A stretch of DNA of 46,444 bases from Patescibacteria group bacterium (GTDB taxonomy: Bacteria > Patescibacteriota > Patescibacteriia > UBA2591 > UBA4787). Every line of letters begins with the position of its first letter. Position 1 is the stretch's first letter. The stretch lies in assembly GCA_049971355.1 (NCBI GenBank), contig JBMFLE010000001.1, forward strand, positions 1 through 46,444, given 5' to 3'. This document shows, in pieces, positions 141-35,667 of this stretch. Under the pieces are notes generated by a model that ran no database searches, was not told the DNA's origin, and saw only the letters and a program-made list of their open reading frames with translations. The translations under genes were made by a program, and so were the position numbers.

Positions 141-2294
141 TTAAAGCAAATGAAAGACAATAGTTAAACCAGCCACTACCACTGAAACCATGCTCATTAA
201 TTTAATTAAGATGTTTAAAGACGGACCAGCTGTATCTTTAAATGGATCGCCAACTGTGTCACCAACTACTGCTGCTTTATGCTCAGCTGACCCCTTGCCG
301 CCAAAATGTCCCTCTTCAATATATTTTTTAGCATTATCCCAAGCTCCGCCAGCATTAGCCATAAAAACAGCTAAAACAAAACCTGAAGTCAAAGCACCTA
401 ATAATAATCCCATTACGCCAGCCACACCTAAAAGTAGACCAACCAAAATCGGAGCAATGACCGCTATTAACGACGGCATAATCATTTCTCTTTGTGCGCC
501 TTTAGTGGCAATCGTTACACAATTAGCATAATCGGGTTGATTTTCACCAGTCATAATTCCTTTAATTTCTCGCCATTGACGGCGAACCTCCTCAACCATT
601 TTTGAAGCCACTCGTCCAACTGCTCGTAGGGTAAAAGAACAGAAAAGAAAAGAAAGCATCGCGCCAATAAAAATACCAATTAAAACTTTAGGATTTAATA
701 GATGAATTTGATAATATTCCATAAAATCATTTAAAGTTGCTTGACTAACTTCAACCAGTCGACCACTGACTTCCATTGTTTTAACGCCAACTCTTTCTAA
801 ACCAACCCTTACCTCTTCGATATAAGCGGCTAATAAAGCCAAAGCGGTTAAAGCAGCTGCGCTGATGGCAAAACCTTTACCAGTGGCGGCCGTGGTATTA
901 CCAAGTGCATCTAAAGCATCTGTTCTTTGACGAACAAATTCCGGCTGACCGGTCATTTGAGCATTACCGCCGGCATTATCAGCCACTGGCCCATAAGCAT
1001 CAGTAGCTAAAGTAAGACCCAAAGTAGAAAGCATGCCAACGCTAGCAATAGCAATTCCATAAAGTCCTAAAGATGGATTAGAAAAACCGCCAGCAGTGGC
1101 AAAAGCTAAGAGAGTGCCAAGGCAAACCACAGTCACTGGAATAAAAGTGCTTAACATTCCGGTCCCAATTCCTTCAATAATCACTGTAGCTGGACCAGTT
1201 TTGGCTTGACCGGCAATTTCTCGAGTCGGTTTAAAACCTGATGAAGTGTAATATTCAATTGACTTACCAACAATAATTCCCGCTAATAAGCCAATAAAAA
1301 TTGACCAAAAAATTCCAAAATTGTCAGGTAAAAGAAAATGAACTATGACGGCTGAAGCTATGGTTATTAAAATAGCAGCCAAATTAATCCCTCGACTTAA
1401 AGCAATCAATAATTCTTTTTGTTCAACCTTTTCTTTGGTTTTAACCAGATAAATTCCTAAAATTGAAGAAATAATTCCTAAACTAGCAATAATCATTGGG
1501 GCAATTACGCCAGACAAACCCAAACCAGCAGCCATGGCCAAAGCTGCAGTGGCTAAAATTGAACCACAATAAGATTCATAAAGATCAGCCCCCATACCAG
1601 CCACATCGCCAACATTATCGCCAACATTATCGGCAATCACGGCTGGATTGCGCGGGTCATCTTCTGGAATACCGGCCTCAACTTTGCCAACTAAATCAGC
1701 ACCAACATCCGCGCCTTTAGTAAAAATTCCTCCGCCAACTCTGGCGAAAAGGGCCTGGAAAGAAGCACCCATTCCAAAACAGAGCATGGTGGTGGTGACG
1801 ATAGGTATCGGATAATGTAAAAAATAATACAAAATAGTAAACCAAAGGCAGATATCTAATAAGCCAAGACCAACCACGGTTAGTCCCATCACTGCTCCGG
1901 CTCGAAAAGCAACTTGCAGACCTCGATTTAAAGATTCTTTAGCCGCTTGAGCAGTGCGCGAAGAAGCCAGGGTAGCGGTTTTCATACCAATATAGCCAGC
2001 CAAGCCAGAAAAAAATCCACCGCTTAAAAAAGCAAATGGCACCCAATTTGATTGAAGCTTTAAACCAAAAGATAAGATAGCAAAAAAAATAAAAGCCCCA
2101 ATAAAAAATTGAATTACTACTTTATATTGCTGTTTTAGGTAAGCTATTGCTCCAACTTTAACCACCTCAGCAATTTTTTTCATTTCTTCGCTCCCGGCCG
2201 GTTGTTTCATTACCTGGCGATAGAAGAACCAGGCAAAAAATAAACTAATCAAACTTCCAATTGGAGCAATAAAAAACAAAATTTCTGGTTTCAT
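141..2294 (-). CDS. hppA: Membrane-integral pyrophosphate-energised cation pump (K+-dependent-type H+/Na+ pyrophosphatase)
   Basis: 717 aa and highly hydrophobic. Hallmark motifs [26 protein letters not shown] and [23 protein letters not shown] are present. The [10 protein letters not shown] motif has Ala rather than Lys, the known signature of K+-dependent enzymes. Confidence 0.95.
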
Positions 2295-4617: not shown

Positions 4618-5871
4618 CTAACAGCAATACAAATTTTCTGGCGGCTTATTTTCCGATATTTCGCCGAAAGGATTACCAAATTTTTGGATATTGGCAATCA
4701 TTTTTTTATTTTCTTCGGTTGATAAAACAGCGCCATTCAATTTATTTCTAATTTTTTTCATCAATTCTGGTAAATTAATTTTAACCGGACAATTTTCAAA
4801 ACAAGTCGAGCAAAGAGTGCAGGCATAAGCATTTGATTTTTTTGCTTGAAGTAAACTATCAGATAAAGCAGTAAAAATAATTCCCTTACTACCTAAATAT
4901 TTATCACCATAATTGCGACCTAATTGATGAAAGGCTGGACAAAAATTCAAACAAGCGCCACAATTTAAACAATATAATAATTCTTCAAAACCTTCTTTTA
5001 ATAACCGCGAACGACCATTATCAACTAAAATTAAATAAACTTCTTTTGCCCCTTGAGCGCCGATCACTAATCTATTTTGAATATCTGCTGTCTTTGATGG
5101 TCCAGAGATAATTGAAACATAAACCGGCCAATCCTGTCCAGCGCCCCAAATGGCTGAAGCTTTGACAATTTTCATCGCTGACTCAATATCTGGGGCCAAT
5201 TTTTCAACTCCAGAAATAATAATGTGCCTATCCGGCCAGCGTGAAACCAAAGAGATATTACCTTCGTTTTCTAATAAAATAATTCTGCCGTCAGCAGTAA
5301 TGACATTGGCTCCAGTAATACCAACTGTTGTTTCGGGAATTTTTTTTCTTAAATATTGACGGGCAAAATTGGCAATCACTTCTGCTTTTGGTTCAATTTT
5401 CTGACCAAATTTTTGATAAATTTTTTCAACAATCTTTTCTGGTGTTAAATGAAAGGCCGGAAAAACCGGATGTAAATCTTCCTCAGTCATCCACTGATTA
5501 ATCATGTCGCCCAAATCAGTCTCAATTAATTCTTTGCCTAAAAAAACTGATTTTAGATCAATCTCGTCAGCAATGTTTGATTTTGATTTTAAAATAACTC
5601 GGTCATCTTGAATCAATTTCTGAATAATCATTCGGGCATCAGCTGCATCTCTTGCCTCAAAAACTTTAATTTTATTTTTTTCTAAATTGGCAATGGTTTG
5701 TTTTTTAACTTCTTCTAAATTATCAATGGTAGCTTTTTTAATCTTATAAAGTTCCTCTCTCAATAATATCCGCTCTAAATCACTGGCTGTTTTTTCTCTT
5801 TTTTCTTTATATTCCAAAACCACCCGCCAAATATTTTCTTTGATTTGTGTGGATAAAAATTCTCTAATCAT
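4618..5871 (-). CDS. LutB-like iron-sulfur protein (LUD-type domain plus 2x[4Fe-4S] ferredoxin motifs)
   Basis: 417 aa. The C-terminal part has CLNCGACLNFCP and CTLCSTCFENCP motifs. The N-terminal 300 aa resemble the LUD/DUF162 fold of LutB/YkgF. Confidence 0.7.
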   Translation of the reverse strand: MIREFLSTQIKENIWRVVLEYKEKREKTASDLERILLREELYKIKKATIDNLEEVKKQTIANLEKNKIKVFEARDAADARMIIQKLIQDDRVILKSKSNIADEIDLKSVFLGKELIETDLGDMINQWMTEEDLHPVFPAFHLTPEKIVEKIYQKFGQKIEPKAEVIANFARQYLRKKIPETTVGITGANVITADGRIILLENEGNISLVSRWPDRHIIISGVEKLAPDIESAMKIVKASAIWGAGQDWPVYVSIISGPSKTADIQNRLVIGAQGAKEVYLILVDNGRSRLLKEGFEELLYCLNCGACLNFCPAFHQLGRNYGDKYLGSKGIIFTALSDSLLQAKKSNAYACTLCSTCFENCPVKINLPELMKKIRNKLNGAVLSTEENKKMIANIQKFGNPFGEISENKPPENLYCC

Positions 5872-5886
5872 ACTTGTTAGCAGTAA

Positions 5887-6606
5887 TTAGTAGCGATTTA
5901 ACAATTGTGATAATTCTTTAATTTCTATATCTTTAGTATTTTCTTTCAGGTGAAGATAACATAAAGGACAGGTGGTCACTAAAATTTTCACTCCAGTTTG
6001 TTCCGCTTGTTTTAATCTATCTTGGGCAATTTGATTGGCCAATTCCGGCTCATTAGATTTGACTCCGCCGCCTCCGCCACAGCAAAAAGAGTCAATTCGA
6101 TTTAATTTCATTTCTTTTATTTCGTATCCGAGCAATCTAATAATTTCTCGCGGTTCATCATAAACTCCCATTTGCCTGCCCAAATGACAAGGATCATGGT
6201 AACTGACCGCCTGGCGGTCAGAATTTTCAATTTTCAATTTCCAACTTTCATTTTTTTTGGCAATTGTTTGAGTGATGTGTTCAATTTGGATATCCCATTT
6301 TTCGCCCAAAATTTTCGGGTATTCTTTGCTAAAAATCATAAAACAGGCCGGACAATTAGTAATAATTTTAGAAACACTGTGTTCTTTAAAAATTTTTAAA
6401 TTCTTTTCAGCCAGTTTCTGAAAATCGTCAAAATAACCAGCCTTCAAAGCCGGCGAACCGCAACAAGCTTCAATCCCAGCCAATTCAATAAAATCAATTT
6501 TCAATTGGCGCAAAATCTGGCGATAATTATCCAACAAATCCTTGACGACAAATTTGGTTAGACAGCCGGGATAATATAAAATGTTGCCTCGGAATAATTT
6601 AAACAT
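5887..6606 (-). CDS. LutA/GlcF-like Fe-S oxidoreductase with two cysteine-rich (CCG) domains
   Basis: 239 aa with YYPGCL...CCGSPA and CPACF...CCGGGGG...TTCPLC patterns, immediately downstream of the LutB-like gene. Confidence 0.7.
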   Translation of the reverse strand: MFKLFRGNILYYPGCLTKFVVKDLLDNYRQILRQLKIDFIELAGIEACCGSPALKAGYFDDFQKLAEKNLKIFKEHSVSKIITNCPACFMIFSKEYPKILGEKWDIQIEHITQTIAKKNESWKLKIENSDRQAVSYHDPCHLGRQMGVYDEPREIIRLLGYEIKEMKLNRIDSFCCGGGGGVKSNEPELANQIAQDRLKQAEQTGVKILVTTCPLCYLHLKENTKDIEIKELSQLLNRY

Positions 6607-6658
6607 AATACAAATCTTTTTTATTCACAAATTTGTATTGATTTGTACATTCGTTGAT

Positions 6659-7330
6659 CTAAATCCTCCCTATCAACATCAAAACACCTAAAACCATTAA
6701 GAATAATCCGGCCAGTAATCTCATCCAACGGCGGTATTTCATCCGCCAAGTCTCTAACTTTGCGGAGGAACTGCCAAAATAAACCACGGCCAAAATTATT
6801 AGCAATGGCAGAACAAAAATTAAATTATATAAAAGAAGATATAAAATTCCTTGCCAGCGAGTACATTTTTCTGCCATTAGACAAAGCACGCCTAAATAAA
6901 TCCCGCCGGTACAAGGCAACTCAAAGGCGGCAACCAAAAAACCCAGAACAATCGCCCCGGGGATAGAAGCCCGATGAATATATTTTTCTAAAAGCGGCTT
7001 TTTTGACTCAGGAATAGCTAAACTAATTCCTTTGCCATACCAAAAAAAATCTTTCAAATTAACCAAACCCAAAATAATCAATAAAACAGCAGCAACTTTT
7101 GAAATAATTAAAGTCAGATGCAATGAGGTCAGAATTTTCAAAAGCCCCAGGCCGGCTAAAAAATAAACAATAAAAACAGTAAAAATATAAATCAAGCCGA
7201 CTCGCCAGACTCTTTTCGACGAACCAATCAGCGATAAATAGCCCAATAAAAAAATTAAAACAGCAAAAGCACAGGGATTGATAGAGTCAATAATTGCGGC
7301 GCCAATAATGGCCGGGATAGTTAAATTCAT
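6659..7330 (-). CDS. CcdA/DsbD-family thiol-disulfide electron transporter
   Basis: 223 aa with about 6 TM segments and conserved membrane cysteines in INPCAF and ELPCTGG. Confidence 0.75.
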   Translation of the reverse strand: MNLTIPAIIGAAIIDSINPCAFAVLIFLLGYLSLIGSSKRVWRVGLIYIFTVFIVYFLAGLGLLKILTSLHLTLIISKVAAVLLIILGLVNLKDFFWYGKGISLAIPESKKPLLEKYIHRASIPGAIVLGFLVAAFELPCTGGIYLGVLCLMAEKCTRWQGILYLLLYNLIFVLPLLIILAVVYFGSSSAKLETWRMKYRRWMRLLAGLFLMVLGVLMLIGRI

Positions 7331-7980: not shown

Positions 7981-8445
7981 TTATAGTTTTAAAATCGTCG
8001 GAAGACCAAAATAAAAGCAGATAGTAATAACCATTAAGGCTAACCAATAAACATTAGGCACGCCTAGCCACCAACGGCGATACCACCAAATTTCTAAATT
8101 GTCGCTCCGGAACTTTTTGATGCCGAAGGCCGGATTAAAAACGAACCAGAAAAAATCTTCCAACGTAACCAATGTGAAAAAAAATCCGACAATCAACATT
8201 TCTTTGCGCCAATTCCAGTGGGTAAAAAAGCAGGGTAAATGAATAATCATTAGCAGAAAAATCCACATCATCAAATGGTAACCGGTTAAGGGTCGACCGC
8301 CTAGTAGTTTGGATATCAATTTATTCGTACAACGCCAAGTCGGCAATTTTCCTGCCCAGCCGTTTTCGCCTTCGATCTGGATCTCCCACACAGCCAAAAC
8401 TATGGCTACTACTAAAGTATAAATCAAAAAGACTATAAAGAGCAC
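7981..8445 (-). CDS. Hypothetical Trp-rich integral membrane protein
   Basis: 154-aa ORF with four hydrophobic segments and no recognisable family. Confidence 0.45.
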   Translation of the reverse strand: MLFIVFLIYTLVVAIVLAVWEIQIEGENGWAGKLPTWRCTNKLISKLLGGRPLTGYHLMMWIFLLMIIHLPCFFTHWNWRKEMLIVGFFFTLVTLEDFFWFVFNPAFGIKKFRSDNLEIWWYRRWWLGVPNVYWLALMVITICFYFGLPTILKL

Positions 8446-10911: not shown

Positions 10912-11904
10912 CTAAAACCAATTAAAAAGTTTGGCAATAAAGAGGATATAAACAAGAAAATAAAAACTACCTTCCCAAATATGAATTTTACTTGAAATTC
11001 CTGAAATAACAAAAAGAAGTGTTGCTAAAGCCATGGTTGGGATACCAATCGCAAAAGTTTGACCATCAACTGACAAAACATGAAATAAGGCAGGAAAACC
11101 AATGACTACCAAACCATTAAAAACATTTGAACCCAAAATATTGCCAACAGCAATTTCTGACTTCTTCTTTAAAGCTGCTTTAACAGAAACTAATAATTCT
11201 GGGAGAGAAGTGCCAATTGCTACTGCGGTGACGGTAATTATTCCAGTTGCAACCTTTAAAATTTCTGAAAGCTTAATTAAAGCATTAATTAAATATTGAG
11301 CGCCTGCCAACAAAGCAAGAATTCCAATTATTAAGAGAAAAAAATCTTTAAAATTAAGTTTTGGCCGAGCCGGTATTTCTTTTTTAAGAATAATTATTTT
11401 TCTTCTTGTAACGCGATCAGGCAAAACTTCTTCAACTCCTTCCATTTTTTCCTCCTTCCTTTCTGAAACAGTGTAAAAAAGATAAATAACATAAGTAATA
11501 ATCAATAAAATTGATTCACCAAGAGTGACTTGTCGATCCCAAACAACGCCTATCACTAAAACTGTACTAATAGCCAGTAAAGGTAAATCTAAATCAATTA
11601 AATTTTTCTGAACAATTATTTTTCGAGCAAAGATTGCTGAAAGACCAATGATGAGTAAAATATTAGCGATATTAGAGCCAATAGCATTCGCTACCGGCAC
11701 ATCTGATACACCCTTAAAGACTGCTACTGATGAAGAAATAAGTTCTGGGAAGGAAGTGCCAACCCCAACAATTGTGATACCAATAATGAAGGGTGAAATA
11801 CCAATAGCCAGACCAATTTTTTCCGCACTAACAATTAACCAATCAGCGCCCTTAATTAGCACAAAAAGTGAAATAATGAAAATAATAATCCAAAAAATAA
11901 GCAT
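10912..11904 (-). CDS. CaCA-family Ca2+/Na+ antiporter (YrbG-like)
   Basis: Two alpha-repeats are present (GTSFPELISS, GTSLPELLVS; GSNIANILL, GSNVFNGLV). I place the start at MLIFWIII because the longer ORF (to 11988) runs into tRNA-Leu. Confidence 0.85.
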   Translation of the reverse strand: MLIFWIIIFIISLFVLIKGADWLIVSAEKIGLAIGISPFIIGITIVGVGTSFPELISSSVAVFKGVSDVPVANAIGSNIANILLIIGLSAIFARKIIVQKNLIDLDLPLLAISTVLVIGVVWDRQVTLGESILLIITYVIYLFYTVSERKEEKMEGVEEVLPDRVTRRKIIILKKEIPARPKLNFKDFFLLIIGILALLAGAQYLINALIKLSEILKVATGIITVTAVAIGTSLPELLVSVKAALKKKSEIAVGNILGSNVFNGLVVIGFPALFHVLSVDGQTFAIGIPTMALATLLFVISGISSKIHIWEGSFYFLVYILFIAKLFNWF

Positions 11905-11961
11905 AATTTTAATTTTATCCCGAGCGCATAGATTAACTATTACTCGCACCTGGTTAATAAA

Positions 11962-12045
11962 TGCCGGGAGGGAGATTCGCACTCCCACGACCCAAACGGG
12001 TCACAGGTCCTCAGCCTGTTGTGTCTACTATTCCACCACCCCGGC
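11962..12045 (-). tRNA. tRNA-Leu(GAG): tRNA-Leu(GAG), class II with long variable arm
   Basis: 84 nt with anticodon loop CTGAGGA, a variable arm GACCCGTTTGGGTCG, D loop AATAGTAGA and T loop TGCGAAT. Confidence 0.9.
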
Positions 12046-13865: not shown

Positions 13866-13907
13866 TAACAAAAAACGAGAAAAGGGGGAGATGTCTATCT
13901 CCCCCTT
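13866..13907 (-). terminator. Intrinsic terminator of the 712-aa gene
   Basis: Minus strand reads AAGGGGGAGAT-AGAC-ATCTCCCCCTT followed by TTCTCGTTTTTTG. Confidence 0.75.
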
Positions 13908-13928
13908 CCGAGCAAGCGCTGCAGGATG

Positions 13929-16067
13929 TTATTTGGAGGGGTAATATTTAAGCACTACCCGGGTTAAATTATTCCTATTATCAGTATGAATCCGAGTAAT
14001 CCAAAAACCAAGATCCGGAATTAACATTCTGGAGGCTTCATAATTCGTCTGTTCTTCCAGGCACGAATTTAGTTTGGCCAGTATTCCTTTATAAACCATG
14101 GCATAGGCAACATGCAAGTGCCCGCAATCAATGCGTCGAGCTCCTGAGGTAGCATTTTTAGCCACTATCCGCTCAACCACCTGCTGAAGACGATAAGACA
14201 AGCCAAAAGGAATGCCGCCGGTGGGATGAAAGAGCATGACCTTAATCTTTTTTATCTCAGTAACTCCTTTATTCGCTTTATTGCTCTTCGCCCTGCCATT
14301 TTTCGGTCGATCACCAATATATTCGATATATCCATAACCCTTGGCGTGAAGTTTCTCAACAAAATGTTCGACCATATCGTGTCCAACCCTAAGAAGCTTT
14401 GCCTCATGGCTTGAACCTCGAATAATATAAGTCGGAATCCTCCAACGCGGCCAAATCCTTACGCCGTGGTCAACTTGTTCATCAGCGCCCCGGTCTATTA
14501 ATTCCTGATCTTGTCCTGGATGATTATCCACGCCGTCAAAAATATCCCCTGTGCAGATTACAGCATCCGGCTTCAGCTTTTCCCTTTCAATAATTTTTTC
14601 AATTTCCGGTAATATTTCATCCGCTCTCGACTCTTCATTACCAATGTGTAAGTCAGAAAAATCCACAGTTTTATGGCTATTGACATAAAGCCTATCCAAT
14701 GGAATCGGCTGATATTTTTTAACCCAAGGTTTCTTTAATTGATAATAACCATTTTCTTCTTTGATGGCCAATCTCTTTCTCAGAGATTCAATAATTTTCT
14801 GGACTTCTGATTTAGGTTTATTTGTCAATCTTGATAAAGCGCCCAGTCGACGAGGAAAATCTGAAATAGCCGCAATAATTTTCTTCTTATCCTCGCTTAA
14901 ATCGTCAGGAAAATTGTTGTCTTCAAAATAATCTCCGATTTTCTGATAAGCAGTAAGGGTTGAACATTCAACCTCTAAATCTTTAAGCGTACCATCTTGA
15001 TTAAAATCAAGAGACAAAATCACAAATCCTATTTCATGACTGCCGCCTCTCCTTTTTTTAGTCATTTTAGATGGTGGTAAGCTGTAAAGTGAGGGCAATT
15101 GTATAACATCAATGTCGTTGTCGTCTAATTTTTTCTCTCGTTTTGTTGATCTAGGTTTATAACTAAAAACATGTGAACCGGCCAAAACTAAAACGTCTGG
15201 TCTATATTTCTCAATAATTGGCGTGATGGCGCTTTGATAATTTTCTGCTGTCCCTTGAGCAGTATAACTCTTGGTATAGGGCGTATTTTCGCCGCTGTCC
15301 GCGACTATCAGTCTACAATTGTCGCTACCAATCGGAAAAACTTGTTCTATGTCTCCGGCATAGACGAAATTCTTAACTTGCTGGCAAATGGCGGCAATAA
15401 TATTTTGACCATATTCTGTTTTATGGCGCATATCTCGTTCACCGCCAACAACATAAACCTTAAATGGTAGATTCGCTGCTAGCCGCGAAAGATGTTTGAC
15501 AGCAAATTTAACCTGATCTTCAAAATAGTAGCCCCCCCTGAATTTCTTCTTCTTTTTCTTAGACTGTTTGCCCTCATTATCAGTCTCGCCTTTATCGTCA
15601 ATCTCTTTTTCAGGAAAATCACCTAATCTTTCCATAAAATCGCTCCCATCCTTTCTTCCGGGTCGCCCACCAGTCAGATCGACAACCACAGCAAAATTCA
15701 CATTTTCTTTTTTAAAATATTCAAATGCTGTAGCTAAAATAGTGCCCTGAAAAGTTTTTAGCCCAATGCCAACTTTCGCCAGAAAACCAATCTTAAGAGT
15801 CCTTCTCTTTGTTCCTTTTAATTTTATTGGTTCTCCAGGAATTGGCTCGCGCCTAAGAACGAGAAGGTCGCCCCTTTCCACGATGTCATAGCCATGCCGT
15901 TCTCTCAATTCACTGACAAAATAGTAAACATTTATCTTGGCAATACCGAGATGTTCACTGACCTCGCGAACGGTTCGACTACCCCCTTTCAACCAATCAA
16001 TGAATTCCCTAACTTTAACTGATTGAGTAGCAGCGGGTGTCGGGTATCTGGTCTTAATTTTTCCCAT
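13929..16067 (-). CDS. Internally duplicated wHTH-metallophosphoesterase protein (first copy degenerate, second catalytic); function unknown
   Basis: 712 aa. The C-terminal half has the calcineurin-like motifs DFSDLH, GDIFDG, GSSHE and CGHLH. Residues 90-375 align to it but have lost the metal ligands. Each half is preceded by a wHTH-like segment. The gene has higher GC than its neighbours and its own promoter, GGAGG SD and terminator. Confidence 0.85.
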   Translation of the reverse strand: MGKIKTRYPTPAATQSVKVREFIDWLKGGSRTVREVSEHLGIAKINVYYFVSELRERHGYDIVERGDLLVLRREPIPGEPIKLKGTKRRTLKIGFLAKVGIGLKTFQGTILATAFEYFKKENVNFAVVVDLTGGRPGRKDGSDFMERLGDFPEKEIDDKGETDNEGKQSKKKKKKFRGGYYFEDQVKFAVKHLSRLAANLPFKVYVVGGERDMRHKTEYGQNIIAAICQQVKNFVYAGDIEQVFPIGSDNCRLIVADSGENTPYTKSYTAQGTAENYQSAITPIIEKYRPDVLVLAGSHVFSYKPRSTKREKKLDDNDIDVIQLPSLYSLPPSKMTKKRRGGSHEIGFVILSLDFNQDGTLKDLEVECSTLTAYQKIGDYFEDNNFPDDLSEDKKKIIAAISDFPRRLGALSRLTNKPKSEVQKIIESLRKRLAIKEENGYYQLKKPWVKKYQPIPLDRLYVNSHKTVDFSDLHIGNEESRADEILPEIEKIIEREKLKPDAVICTGDIFDGVDNHPGQDQELIDRGADEQVDHGVRIWPRWRIPTYIIRGSSHEAKLLRVGHDMVEHFVEKLHAKGYGYIEYIGDRPKNGRAKSNKANKGVTEIKKIKVMLFHPTGGIPFGLSYRLQQVVERIVAKNATSGARRIDCGHLHVAYAMVYKGILAKLNSCLEEQTNYEASRMLIPDLGFWITRIHTDNRNNLTRVVLKYYPSK

Positions 16068-16096
16068 TTCCTACCTCCTTTTAAATATCTATTTTT

Positions 16097-16125
16097 AGTA
16101 TAGAATAAATAAAAAAAATTGTCAA
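16097..16125 (-). promoter_or_regulatory. Near-consensus promoter of the 712-aa gene
   Basis: Minus strand reads TTGACA (16125->16120), N17, TATACT (16102->16097). GGAGG at 16078->16074 lies 6 nt before the ATG. Confidence 0.65.
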
Positions 16126-16173
16126 CATAAATCTGTAAACAATTTTGTCGTGGGCTACAAAATACTACCGTAC

Positions 16174-20985: not shown

Positions 20986-22617
20986 TTATTTGCGAGCTGA
21001 AAGAATTAGTTTAAGTATCGTTTTCGTGACCGTGATAGCCGTAAACATGGAAGTTAAAATTCCTAAACCAAGGGTTAGGCCAAAACCCCGAACCAATCCG
21101 GTACCAAATTGATAAAGAATAAAACAAGAAATTAAAGTAGTAATATTACTATCTCTGATTGCCGTCCAGGCATGGCGAAAACCATCATCGATAACTGTTA
21201 AACCTGATTTGCCTAAACGTTTTTCGTCTTTAATTCTTTCAAAAATTAAAACATTGGCGTCAACAGCCATACCAAGAGAAACAATAAAACCAGCAATCCC
21301 GGAGAGTGTTAAGGTTACCGGAATTAATTTATATAAAGCTACGTTTATTAACGCATAAATAAAAAGAGCAAGAGCGGCAATTAAACCATAGCAACCGTAA
21401 AACAAAATCATAAAAAGAGCAATAGCCAAGAGACCAATAATTCCGGCAATAAAACTTTTTTCAACAGCGATTCGACCCAAACTCGGACCGATATTTTGTT
21501 GGCTGACCAATTTAATTGGTACTGGCAAAGCGCCGGCTGATAGTCGTTCAGCCAATTCTTTAGCTTCTTTTAAATTAAACTTTCCAGTAATCACTGCCTT
21601 ACCACTAGTAATTGGTTCCTGAACTCTGGGAATACTGATTGGATAACCATCTAAGAAAATCGCCACTGGTTTACCAACATTACGAGTGGTGATTTCGCCG
21701 AAAAGTTTAGCCCCTTCGTCATTAAACTCCAAAGCCACCTGCGGCTCATTAGTTTGGGGATTAAAACTAAGCATCGCGCTTTTCAGTTGCTTACCGGTTA
21801 ATCCAGTATAAGCCCAACCGCCTCCACCAGCAATTTCTTCTTCTGATTTAGTTTTAATCAAAATATGGCTGGCTAAAATTTCCTCTTCGTTTTTTTCATT
21901 TTTTCGTTCGTCAATCTTCTTAATAATATGGTAGCCAAATTGGGTTTTAACTAATTCTTTAGTTATTTCACCTTTTTTTAAACTAAAGGCTGCTTCTTCA
22001 AATTCTTTGATCATCACTCCTTTGCTAAACCAACCCAAATTACCTCCCTGATCCTTAGAGCCTGGATCTTCAGAATATTCCTTGGCTAAAGCAGCGAAAT
22101 CCGAATCCGGTTTAAAAACTAATTTTAAAACATCTTTCGCTTTTTTTTCCGCTTTTTTATTGTAATCAGCAATTTCTTTTTTCTCGGCTTCAGTTAATTC
22201 TCTTGGTGGCGCCTGTTCTTTAAATTCCAAAATCGGTGTCTCGCCAATCATTTTTATTGCCTCATTAACATTTTTAATTCCGGGTAATTCAATAATAATT
22301 TTCCATTCATTGCCGGCCTTGGCAGTTTGAATTAGCGGTTCAGTCACGCCGAAAACATTAATCCGGCGTTCAATTACATCACGGGCACCTTCAATAGCGC
22401 TTGCTCTTTGCTCGGCTGGAATTTCTGAAGTATCAGTTTGATAAATCAATTGCGTTCCACCCTGAAGGTCCAAGCCGAGATGAATTTTCTGCTTAGTAAA
22501 CCATTCAGCACCAGGAACCCAAGAAGGCAATCGTGGAATATCAACCAAAAGAACAAAAATGACAATGATAAAAACAAAAATTAATGTTGTCCAAAGTTTA
22601 TTATTTACCATAATCAA
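20986..22617 (-). CDS. secD: Protein translocase subunit SecD with an inserted parvulin-type PPIase module
   Basis: 543 aa. SecD motifs are present ([43 protein letters not shown]). Residues about 135-265 contain [28 protein letters not shown]...TQFGYHIIK, which is typical of PpiC/PrsA rotamases. Confidence 0.9.
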
Positions 22618-33544: not shown

Positions 33545-33970
33545 TATTAATTTTCGGACCAAAATTGACCGATTTTCGAACTCTTGATCTAAAAACTGAA
33601 TAATTTTTTCTCTAAATTTTTGGTATCTATCTCTAATTGTAGTATAACTTAAATTTAGAAAATTTGTCAAGCATCCATTTTTAGACAGATTGTCTCTCCG
33701 CATTCTTTAGCCAACCCCCTTTTACTTTTAAAAGGAGCTGTCTGATTAACGGCCATAGCGATGCTTGATTTTTTTCCCAGTCCCTGATCAACAGTCAGCT
33801 GACCCACTATTTTCAAAAGAGCGTCTTTCTCTCTTTTCAGCCCGGACAATTCCAGTAAGGTTCCCGAGTTCTGACCAGAACGGCTTAAATAGCCATGGAT
33901 AATTCTGGGTTGAACTCCGTATTTTTGGGCTAAACCCCCACACCAAGTTTTGGTGTGGGGTAAATTTTAG
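33545..33970 (-). pseudogene. Decayed IS3-family OrfA (COG2963-type) remnant plus other transposase-like debris
   Basis: One minus frame reads ..GGLAQKYGVQPRIIHGYLS..LKREKDALLKIVGQLTVDQGLGKKS, the HTH and leucine-zipper region of IS3 OrfA. There is no proper start, the sequence is split over frames, and no OrfB is present. Confidence 0.55.
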
Positions 33971-33971
33971 G

Positions 33972-34044
33972 GGTGGCATACGGGATTTGCACCCGTGCTG
34001 AAAGTTCCACAGACTTCCGTGCTAACTACTACACCAATGCCACC
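33972..34044 (-). tRNA. tRNA-His(GUG): tRNA-His(GUG) with encoded G-1
   Basis: G(-1)-GTGGCAT-TG-GTGT-AGTAGTTA-GCAC-G-GAAGT-CTGTGGA-ACTTT-CAGC-ACGGG-TGCAAAT-CCCGT-ATGCCAC-C. Confidence 0.9.
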
Positions 34045-34527: not shown

Positions 34528-34599
34528 TACCCTCGGTGGGAATCGGACCCACATCTCGGGCTTAGAAGGCCCGAACTCTATCCATTGAGCTACGAGGGC
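34528..34599 (-). tRNA. tRNA-Arg(UCU): tRNA-Arg(UCU)
   Basis: GCCCTCG-TA-GCTC-AATGGATA-GAGT-T-CGGGC-CTTCTAA-GCCCG-AGAT-GTGGG-TCCGATT-CCCAC-CGAGGGT-A. It has a G1:U72 wobble pair and C at position 55. Confidence 0.88.
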
Positions 34600-34731: not shown

Positions 34732-35667
34732 TTAGTGAGATTTTTTTATTTTATCGTGAAACGCTTGATAAATTTTTTTAAGATCTTGATTAGCGATTCG
34801 AGTGTAAATTTGGGTAGTAGTGATGTTTTTATGACCCAGTAATTTCTGAATCGTTTGCAAGTTAACTCCAGCGGCTAATAAATTAACGGCAAATGAATGG
34901 CGCAAACTGTGAGTGGTAATTTTTTCAGTCAGGCCGGCAATTTTTACGTATTTTTTTATCAGACGTTGAATACTTCTCGGGCTGAGCTTATTTTTAGGCT
35001 CTTTCTGATCCACCTCTTTTTGGCCGCGATCATGACGAATAAATAAAGACGAATCGAAATCAATTCTTTTTTCCAAATATCTTTTTAACCAATACCTTGC
35101 TCGATTAGAAAGGAAAACCGTTCGCCATTTACCATCTTTACCTTTAATTGAGAATTTATCTTCAGTCAAATTAATATCTTGTCTCTTTAAATTTGTTAAT
35201 TCGGAAATTCGTAGACCAGTTGAAAATAGTAATTCTAAAATTGCCTTATCTCGAAATTTGATAATTTCTTGCTGGTCAACTTGAAGTGGCATGTTTAAAA
35301 ATTTTTCTAAATTATCCCCCCGAAGAAAAGAAATTTCTTTTGAAATTTTGGCTAATTCAATTTTTTCTGGGGTCAAAGTTTTAACACCACGTTTAGCTAA
35401 ATATCTAAGAAAAGATCTCAGGGCAATTAAATAGTAATTTTGAGTTGCAGCTGAAAAATTGCCACCACGTCGATTTTGTTGTTTGGCTAACCAAAGTTTA
35501 TATTGGCGCACCAAATCAAGATCAATCTCTTTGGGTTGCTTGATTTTAGCCCAGGCCAAGAAACTTTTTAAATAAAAATCATAATTGCGGATTGTTAATT
35601 GGTTGAGACCTTTCTCAAATTTTAAATGTTCCAGAAATTCAGTGATGAGTTGTTTGAGAGTAAACAT
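34732..35667 (-). CDS. Tyrosine site-specific recombinase (XerC/XerD-like)
   Basis: 311 aa with an N-terminal SAM-like domain. The catalytic region has ..TGLRISE.., HSLRHSFAVNLL and LLGHKNITTTQIYT. Confidence 0.85.
   Translation of the reverse strand: MFTLKQLITEFLEHLKFEKGLNQLTIRNYDFYLKSFLAWAKIKQPKEIDLDLVRQYKLWLAKQQNRRGGNFSAATQNYYLIALRSFLRYLAKRGVKTLTPEKIELAKISKEISFLRGDNLEKFLNMPLQVDQQEIIKFRDKAILELLFSTGLRISELTNLKRQDINLTEDKFSIKGKDGKWRTVFLSNRARYWLKRYLEKRIDFDSSLFIRHDRGQKEVDQKEPKNKLSPRSIQRLIKKYVKIAGLTEKITTHSLRHSFAVNLLAAGVNLQTIQKLLGHKNITTTQIYTRIANQDLKKIYQAFHDKIKKSH

Follow-up and report, generated by a model that had tools for sequence, protein, structure and literature searches.

The stretch of DNA analysed here (46,444 nucleotides, positions 1 to 46,444 of contig JBMFLE010000001.1, assembly GCA_049971355.1, from a Patescibacteria group bacterium; hereafter the window) carries an open reading frame (ORF) for a protein of 712 amino acids (aa), which is the subject of the current study. 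The protein is built from two successive units, each consisting of a domain of the winged helix-turn-helix (wHTH) type followed by a metallophosphoesterase (MPE) domain, the first with a degenerate and the second with a largely intact predicted catalytic site. The gene is equipped with a promoter, a Shine-Dalgarno (SD) site and a terminator of its own (table 1). Much of this had been proposed in an original prediction made from the letters of the sequence, and every peptide and residue number given there was found in place.

Table 1. Features of the gene for the 712-aa protein, in window coordinates.
Feature	Position	Strand	Evidence or remarks
Coding sequence of 712 aa, predicted (wHTH - dead MPE) - (wHTH - live MPE)	13929..16067	(-)	uninterrupted ORF
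Sigma-70-type promoter, TTGACA-N17-TATACT	16097..16125	(-)	11/12 consensus positions
Shine-Dalgarno site, AGGAGG	16074..16079	(-)	6 nt before ATG
Intrinsic terminator	13870..13909	(-)	13-bp stem with 6 G-C pairs, then T tract
Imperfect palindrome, overlapping the -35 box	16115..16146	(.)	13-nt arms, 85% complementary, 6-nt spacer
wHTH 1, residues 15-75	15843..16025	(-)	Pfam TrmB, E = 6.9e-6; pLDDT 85-94
N-terminal degenerate MPE module, residues 86-378	14934..15812	(-)	hhalign against the C-terminal module
Clade-specific acidic/basic insert with KKKKKK tract, residues 141-180	15528..15647	(-)	
wHTH 2, residues 385-447	14727..14915	(-)	pLDDT 90-97; AdcR/MarR-type PDB matches
C-terminal predicted intact, DP1-like MPE module, residues 455-712	13932..14705	(-)	

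Relatives of the protein were collected in an exhaustive HMMER search, which yielded 774 sequences (253 with E <= 1e-10); the two-module set comprised about 55 representative clusters of 640-880 aa with the same two-part build. A word-index homologue search, even with an alignment of 46 sequences as the query, found only two close relatives, and its candidate list may have been saturated by words from the poly-lysine tract and other low-complexity segments. When profiles of the 55 relatives were compared with hhalign, the N-terminal half (residues 15-378) aligned with the C-terminal half (residues 385-712) over 296 collinear columns, with a probability of 100% and E = 4e-54. The MPE parts alone gave E = 2e-46, and wHTH 1 matched wHTH 2 with E = 6.5e-13. 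The aligned blocks of the N- and C-terminal halves were KIGFLAKVG and VDFSDLHIG, VVVDLTGG and CTGDIFDG, VVGGERD and IRGSSHE, LIVADSG..PYTKSY and LFHPTGG..GLSY, and LAGSHV and CGHLHV, followed by a last pair in which HEIGFVILSLDF of the N-terminal half stands against DLGFWITRIHTD of the C-terminal half. The profile alignment confirmed both the duplicated build and the block register that had been proposed at the outset. A pairwise BLASTP comparison of the two halves, which returned an alignment in the wrong register (residues 272-345 against 476-555, E = 0.15), was superseded by the profiles.

The winged-helix segments predicted in front of the two halves were also recovered by PADLOC, and the first of them by Pfam, in addition to the wHTH comparison given above. 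Matches to the Pfam HTH families TrmB, IclR and ArsR were found at residues 23-57, and MarR, Lrp and Csa3 proteins in PDB matched wHTH 1. An AlphaFold2 (AF2) model computed from the 46-sequence alignment had a predicted local distance difference test score (pLDDT) of 87.9 and a predicted template modelling score (pTM) of 0.89, with a defined arrangement of four domains; it was used in place of a model from a 3-sequence alignment, which was unusable (pLDDT 41). The secondary-structure elements of the model followed the same order in both halves, and wHTH 1 consisted of three helices and a beta hairpin. The insert in the N-terminal module, whose KKKKKK tract spans residues 170-175, had pLDDT values of 55-77 and an identity of 36-45% even to close relatives, and is probably disordered.

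The protein belongs to the calcineurin-like metallophosphoesterase superfamily PF00149. Its C-terminal half scored 25.3 bits against this family (cut-off 21.5), the Pfam Metallophos match (E = 2.3e-5) starting from residue 470; the set of five motifs of the family (D-x-H, G-D, G-N-H-D/E, H and G-H-x-H) is complete save for an Asn to Ser change in motif III, and the fold was confirmed by Foldseek. A direct Metallophos match was obtained for the N-terminal halves of eight of 18 relatives, and none for that of the window protein. These matches, together with the alignment of the MPE parts, agree with the claim that the N-terminal half likewise has an MPE fold.

The predicted catalytic set of the C-terminal module consists of D472, H474, D508, S553-H554-E555, H614, H650 and H652. 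At seven of these positions (D472, H474, D508, H554, E555, H614 and H652) the residue is kept by 48-54 of the 55 relatives. The position of H650, the first His of motif V, is occupied by His in 34 relatives and by Asn in 17, and the Asn position of motif III by Asn in 20 and by Ser in 19, Ser being the residue found in the clade of the window protein. At the ligand positions the N-terminal half has K98, G100, D130, E210, R211, D212, D257, G297 and H299. In the N-terminal half, all but two of the 55 relatives lack the catalytic His of motif III, and 46 have Gly in place of the first His of motif V. The proposal that the first copy is dead and the second live is thus borne out by the ligand positions across the family.

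Judged by the comparison with two close relatives, to which the N-terminal module is 72-77% and the C-terminal module 70-71% identical, both modules are under purifying selection. Moreover, the N-terminal module retains a family-specific P-Y-T-K-S-Y-x-x-Q motif and a conserved basic KKRRGG loop. In a rough neighbour-joining tree, 52 of the 55 N-terminal modules grouped together, as did 49 of 54 C-terminal modules, which suggests one ancient duplication.

A profile of the family, searched against PDB, matched best to DP1, the small subunit of DNA polymerase D (PolD). Six DP1 entries were found with E values between 3e-14 and 3e-11, the alignment running from motif I through the region after motif V and covering the whole phosphodiesterase domain, and were followed by Mre11 (1.5e-6) and SbcD (2e-3). 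The best NCBIfam match was NF003118 (PolD small subunit), followed by SbcD, and phrog_7339 of PHROG ('DNA repair exonuclease') also matched the family. When the AF2 model was compared with PDB by Foldseek, the top nine matches were all DP1 (best E = 5.9e-10), and next in rank were purple acid phosphatases, GpdQ, Rv0805, Mre11, Vps29 and the Pol alpha B-subunit (8fod_C). The profile of the N-terminal half alone gave only a weak match to motifs I-II of Mre11 (E = 0.3). The comparison with MPE families that the original prediction had recommended placed PolD DP1 first, and on the evidence of profiles and the modelled structure DP1 is the nearest characterised relative, ahead of Mre11 and SbcD.

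Single-module relatives of 350-430 aa, in which an HTH or Myb-like region at the N terminus precedes a wHTH and an MPE domain, were found at 242 confirmed viral loci in IMG/VR, compared with one or two loci for the two-module form. The best structural matches in BFVD were likewise single-module phage proteins (TM-score 0.74-0.82 on the target), several of them automatically named 'DNA polymerase II small subunit'. In tblastn searches of 50,697 GenBank phages, no match was obtained with the C-terminal half, and the single-module protein P0044 gave one match, at positions 5746-6906 of Halorubrum tailed virus BLv36 (L095). The neighbourhoods of 34 dereplicated viral loci were compared by BLAST clustering, PHROGs and Pfam, and contained a mixture of genes, including polymerase B, helicases, ligase, ParB, portal and lysis genes (among them a lysin), with no partner gene recurring consistently. 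Because the phage neighbourhoods are heterogeneous, gene context does not fix the pathway in which these proteins act.

Three of the relatives (P0050, P0067 and P0086) contain LAGLIDADG-containing inteins within the MPE domain, inserted at two different conserved motifs, one after GG-x-S-Y-A-R and the other inside C-F-Q/S-Q-T. Inteins are concentrated in enzymes of DNA replication, repair and nucleotide metabolism, where they occupy functionally critical sites. By analogy, their presence lends indirect support to a DNA-related function of the family. It was also found that a C-terminal tail of the form K-x-[DN]-[YFW]-COOH (e.g. VKERDY), a putative docking motif, occurs in 34 of 80 single-module proteins, in all three intein-bearing proteins and in seven of the 55 two-module proteins; the window protein is without it.

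The promoter, GGAGG-type SD site and terminator that had been claimed for the gene are all real. The promoter is one of six sites in the whole window that score at least 11/12, and the terminator stem spans 13909..13880. Two of 36 window ORFs have an SD core of 4 nt or more no further than 20 nt from the start codon, in line with the earlier remark that most host genes have none, a scarcity that may partly stem from mechanically picked start codons. In the relatives, a GGAGG-type SD site precedes the homologue in seven of nine cases, a stem-loop with a T tract follows it in seven of nine, and comparable -35/-10 boxes were found upstream. The palindrome at the -35 box has the arms AAAATTGTTTACA-N6-TGTTGACAATTTT. 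Inverted repeats are also present in the promoter or 5' untranslated region of relatives, but their sequences differ, and the palindrome may serve as an operator or may have arisen by chance, the DNA being AT-rich.

The sole other window ORF with an AGGAGG site lies at 7981-8445 (-), and has the highest G+C content at third codon positions (GC3) of the window (0.47). Its product is a hydrophobic, Trp-rich protein of 154 aa with no Pfam match. An SD site and raised GC3 thus coincide in two unrelated genes, 13929-16067 and 7981-8445.

The window is ordinary chromosome, with genes for H+-pyrophosphatase, NusA, Der, DnaB, SecDF, MurA and Pth and ten tRNAs. The two close homologues of the 712-aa protein (68% and 64% identity) both lie on short contigs, one with the CCA-adding enzyme upstream (74% identical) and the other with RluA downstream (70% identical). 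A scan of one genome per species with an 11-sequence alignment revealed nine further loci, all in metagenome-assembled genomes, labelled as Parcubacteria, Nealsonbacteria, Tagabacteria or Patescibacteria group and in two cases as Gammaproteobacteria. Homologues at 30-68% identity share the slot between the CCA-adding enzyme and RluA, guanylate kinase (Gmk) and L19 in six other Parcubacteria contigs. This order is intact in L005, L007 and L009; it is the same in L010, where the contig ends within the gene and the upstream side is absent, and is held in part in L001 and L002. Four other loci (L003, L006, L008 and L011) have PCMT and/or YceG among the downstream genes. Neighbours across the syntenic contigs are 54-74% identical. 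L005 and L007 are the two loci labelled 'uncultured Gammaproteobacteria bacterium'; the housekeeping genes of both share 54-67% identity and synteny with the window, as do those of the Patescibacteria contigs, and the labels are probably wrong.

Neither at the 11 related loci nor in the window was an SbcC/Rad50-type ATPase, recombinase or defence gene found beside the gene, and no integrase, transposase or repeats flank it in the window. PADLOC returned solely wHTH-level matches, to Csa3, CasR and CARF3 models (E between 1e-4 and 7e-3), at residues 20-57 and 380-444. The survey of homologues and neighbourhoods proposed at the outset therefore located them in conserved housekeeping slots. Because the synteny is deep and conserved, a recent transfer is not indicated. 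These comparisons of sequence and gene order indicate that the gene is vertically inherited, monocistronic, chromosomal and conserved in a Parcubacteria lineage, and is no mobile or defence element.

The G+C content of the gene is 40.4%, compared with a mean of 34.5% (sd 3.1, z = 1.9), and equals that of the H+-pyrophosphatase gene at 141..2294. The gene is therefore at the upper end of the range and no outlier. The hand counts that had led to its description as compositionally foreign (30/60, 29/60 and 17/60) were exact, and the gene does lie on the G+C-rich side, but the foreign character inferred from them did not stand. In each of the AT-rich relatives (L005, L007 and L009), the G+C content and GC3 of the gene were above those of its syntenic neighbours, the largest offset (about 13 points) being that of L009, with a GC3 of 0.34 against 0.20 +/- 0.01. 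In relatives with about 41% G+C the offset was gone, the composition of the gene being equal to that of its neighbours. Because the same offset recurs in AT-rich relatives, the unusual composition belongs to the gene itself. The raised G+C content and the strong signals are thus its own conserved property and not a sign of recent transfer, and may be tied to expression level. Conservation in the lineage, one of two findings that would have made the gene an ordinary core gene, was largely observed; the other, typical composition, was not, the gene being G+C-richer. In summary, a gene whose promoter, SD site, terminator and composition resembled those of an imported cassette is inherited vertically and carries these as conserved traits.

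For the function of the 712-aa protein we favour, with some reserve, a DNA exo/endonuclease that depends on metal and acts as a pseudo-dimer fused in one chain, as predicted from sequence comparison. The ancestor would have been a single-module protein of the kind widespread in phages, acting as a homodimer as Mre11 and SbcD do, and its tandem duplication would have given rise to the two-module family. Fusion would have locked the dimer in one chain and freed one site from catalytic constraint, the N-terminal site decaying after the duplication and the C-terminal site being kept. The dead N-terminal module may serve as a structural second protomer, a scaffold and a surface for binding DNA or other nucleic acids. 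The C-terminal module would be a phosphodiesterase with two metals (Mn/Fe/Zn) and would hydrolyse the phosphodiester bonds of DNA like DP1 and Mre11, acting as a 3'-5' exonuclease and/or a single-stranded DNA endonuclease. The two wHTH domains would position or hold the DNA, or recruit a partner protein, and the cellular role would be in DNA replication or repair.

Several observations weigh against a DNA nuclease. Motif III of the live module reads G-S-S-H-E, so that an Asn ligand is replaced by Ser and the metal site departs in part from the canonical form. Foldseek also gives high scores to purple acid phosphatases, GpdQ and Rv0805, and the fold alone leaves the substrate unfixed. Neither the bacterial loci nor the 34 viral loci have a replication or repair gene as a consistent neighbour, and the homologue in BLv36, an unannotated ORF, lies in a morphogenesis module, between the genes for the portal (ORF39) and the HK97-type major capsid protein (ORF46). 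Fusion of a wHTH to an enzyme is also typical of metabolite-sensing regulators.

A regulator of this kind, namely a ligand-hydrolysing transcription factor with its wHTH domains on an operator, a live MPE that cleaves a nucleotide messenger or small phosphodiester and a dead module that binds the ligand, is a possible but unlikely reading. It would account for the two TrmB/MarR/Csa3-like wHTH domains and the palindrome over the gene's own -35 box, and a conserved dead catalytic pocket is a common sensor design; moreover, Rv0805 and GpdQ, which are cyclic-nucleotide and glycerophosphodiester MPEs, are good fold matches, and IMG names a relative 'biotin operon repressor/predicted phosphodiesterase'. 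The sequence affinity of the family is, however, to the nucleases DP1, Mre11 and SbcD and not to class III phosphodiesterases, the inteins and the abundance in phages suit DNA enzymes better, and the upstream palindromes are not conserved in sequence and lie in an AT-rich region. The constant position of the gene in one clade, between a CCA-adding enzyme that carries an HD domain and a pseudouridine synthase of the RluA type, raises the question of a phosphoesterase that heals or processes RNA ends (for instance as a 2',3'-cyclic phosphodiesterase or as a 3'-phosphatase) together with the neighbouring tRNA enzymes, and some MPE enzymes are indeed 2',3'-cNMP phosphodiesterases (PMC4996933). Such a role appears very improbable, since the gene's own promoter and terminator place it outside any operon with the tRNA enzymes, PCMT and YceG are the neighbours instead in four other relatives, and no RNA-repair family in Pfam or NCBIfam matches.

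The original prediction had itself leaned, as speculation, towards a horizontally acquired, self-contained cassette of a mobile or anti-phage defence locus. The G+C and GC3 values above those of flanking genes, the strong SD site in a genome nearly without them and the many single-module relatives in phages are what would be expected of such a cassette. This explanation nevertheless fails and is now hardly credible: the synteny with housekeeping genes is deep and conserved, the flanks hold no integrase, transposase or repeats, PADLOC detected the wHTH domains and nothing else, the composition offset and the SD site recur in relatives, and hardly any viral contig carries the two-module form. 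A pseudo-dimeric DNA nuclease thus remains the reading we prefer. A bolder version of it, in which the wHTH-MPE family would be the bacterial-world sister of the DP1/B-subunit lineage and the Parcubacteria protein a replisome-associated, trans-acting proofreading or end-processing exonuclease, is rather improbable.

Three further observations were made elsewhere in the window. The only tyrosine recombinase (34732..35667; Phage_integrase with a SAM-like N-domain) lies about 19 kb from the gene and adjoins tRNA-Arg (34528-34599) and tRNA-His (33970-34043); it has a 31%-identical homologue in L010, and could be XerC/D or an island integrase. In the SecD homologue at 20986-22617 (-), residues 146-237 form a peptidyl-prolyl isomerase (rotamase) domain of the PpiC type, an unusual insertion between the first domain of SecD and the P1 head subdomain. 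The called GTG start of a Na+/Ca2+ exchanger ORF at 10912-11988 (-) overlaps tRNA-Leu (11962-12045, (-)) by 27 nt, and the true start is probably further downstream.

Members of the wHTH-MPE family are named in databases as 'hypothetical protein' or 'biotin operon repressor/predicted phosphodiesterase'. No earlier account of a wHTH-MPE family, or of a DP1-like family in bacteria, was found in searches of the literature, in agreement with the earlier statement that the architecture is not that of a described family. The family is therefore undescribed, and combines an unusual active/inactive tandem design with an unexpected affinity to an archaeal and eukaryotic replication module. DP1-type phosphodiesterases are considered characteristic of archaeal PolD, and their inactivated counterparts of the eukaryotic replicative polymerases. 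PolD is described as exclusive to Archaea in one published account (PMC10721889). The present data reveal a family of DP1-like enzymes, sizeable and unnamed, that occurs in phages and in bacteria of the candidate phyla radiation (CPR), including a fused active/inactive pair that is maintained by selection and is a tractable example of how a pseudoenzyme evolves by tandem duplication. The genomes of CPR bacteria are reduced and their DNA maintenance is poorly understood, and the family is a candidate DNA-maintenance nuclease for this group.

Among characterised phage proteins, Bxb1 gp47 is an MPE that acts as a recombination directionality factor and is needed for phage DNA replication (PMC11795197), and A10ZJ24 gp48 is an MPE acting on DNA that is likewise needed for phage DNA replication (PMC12287305). 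Both are phage MPEs with nuclease activity and, like the present family, are structurally close to DP1 and Mre11; they provide a precedent for the DNA nuclease favoured here. Bxb1 gp47 was rejected as a family member, having scored 3.7-6 bits on generic MPE motifs only and lacking a wHTH, and is a relative at the superfamily level.

Mre11 and SbcD belong to the same MPE nuclease clade by profile, and are also fold matches. They work as dimers of nuclease domains, an arrangement that the fused two-module protein may mimic. Unlike them, the 712-aa family has wHTH domains, one dead site and no adjacent Rad50/SbcC ATPase, and its scores against the corresponding models are low (TIGR00619, 23.2 bits against a cut-off of 77.65; NF041754, 12.4 against 750). 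Membership was rejected on these scores and on the lack of a Rad50/SbcC ATPase in 12 loci.

DP1, a two-metal, Mre11-like 3'-5' proofreading exonuclease (PMC4996933), shares with the 712-aa protein the motifs D-x-H, G-D-x-x-D-G-x-x-x-Y/H-P-G-Q, G-x-H-D/E, H and G-H-x-H-V (PDB 5ihe, 6hms and 8ppt), as well as a 'Q-T' segment after motif V. D472, H474, D508, H554, H614, H650 and H652 align with the metal ligands and proton donor of DP1. DP1 differs in having an oligonucleotide/oligosaccharide-binding (OB) fold insertion and an N-terminal domain; the 712-aa protein has neither, and a wHTH stands in their place. In both halves of the AF2 model the wHTH is followed directly by strand 1 of the MPE domain, and no OB family was detected by Pfam. 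Moreover, DP1 is archaeal, whereas the 712-aa family is bacterial or from phages and has its module duplicated in tandem; the score against NF003118 was 33.5 bits, compared with a cut-off of 445, and no DP2-like gene was detected among the window ORFs scanned (46 kb of the genome). Membership of, or orthology to, DP1 was rejected on the missing OB fold and N-terminal domain and the score far under the cut-off.

The B-subunits of eukaryotic polymerases have kept the DP1-type fold and lost every catalytic residue (PMC4996933). The N-terminal module of the 712-aa protein is in the same inactivated state as the B-subunits of Pol alpha, delta and epsilon, but here one chain joins the dead copy to an active one, without an OB fold or a known polymerase partner. 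By analogy, the two modules appear to mirror the active state of DP1 and the inactivated state of the B-subunits, respectively. If the family were indeed the sister of the DP1/B-subunit lineage, a single polypeptide would display both of these states, and a replication module of archaea and eukaryotes would extend into bacteria and their viruses.

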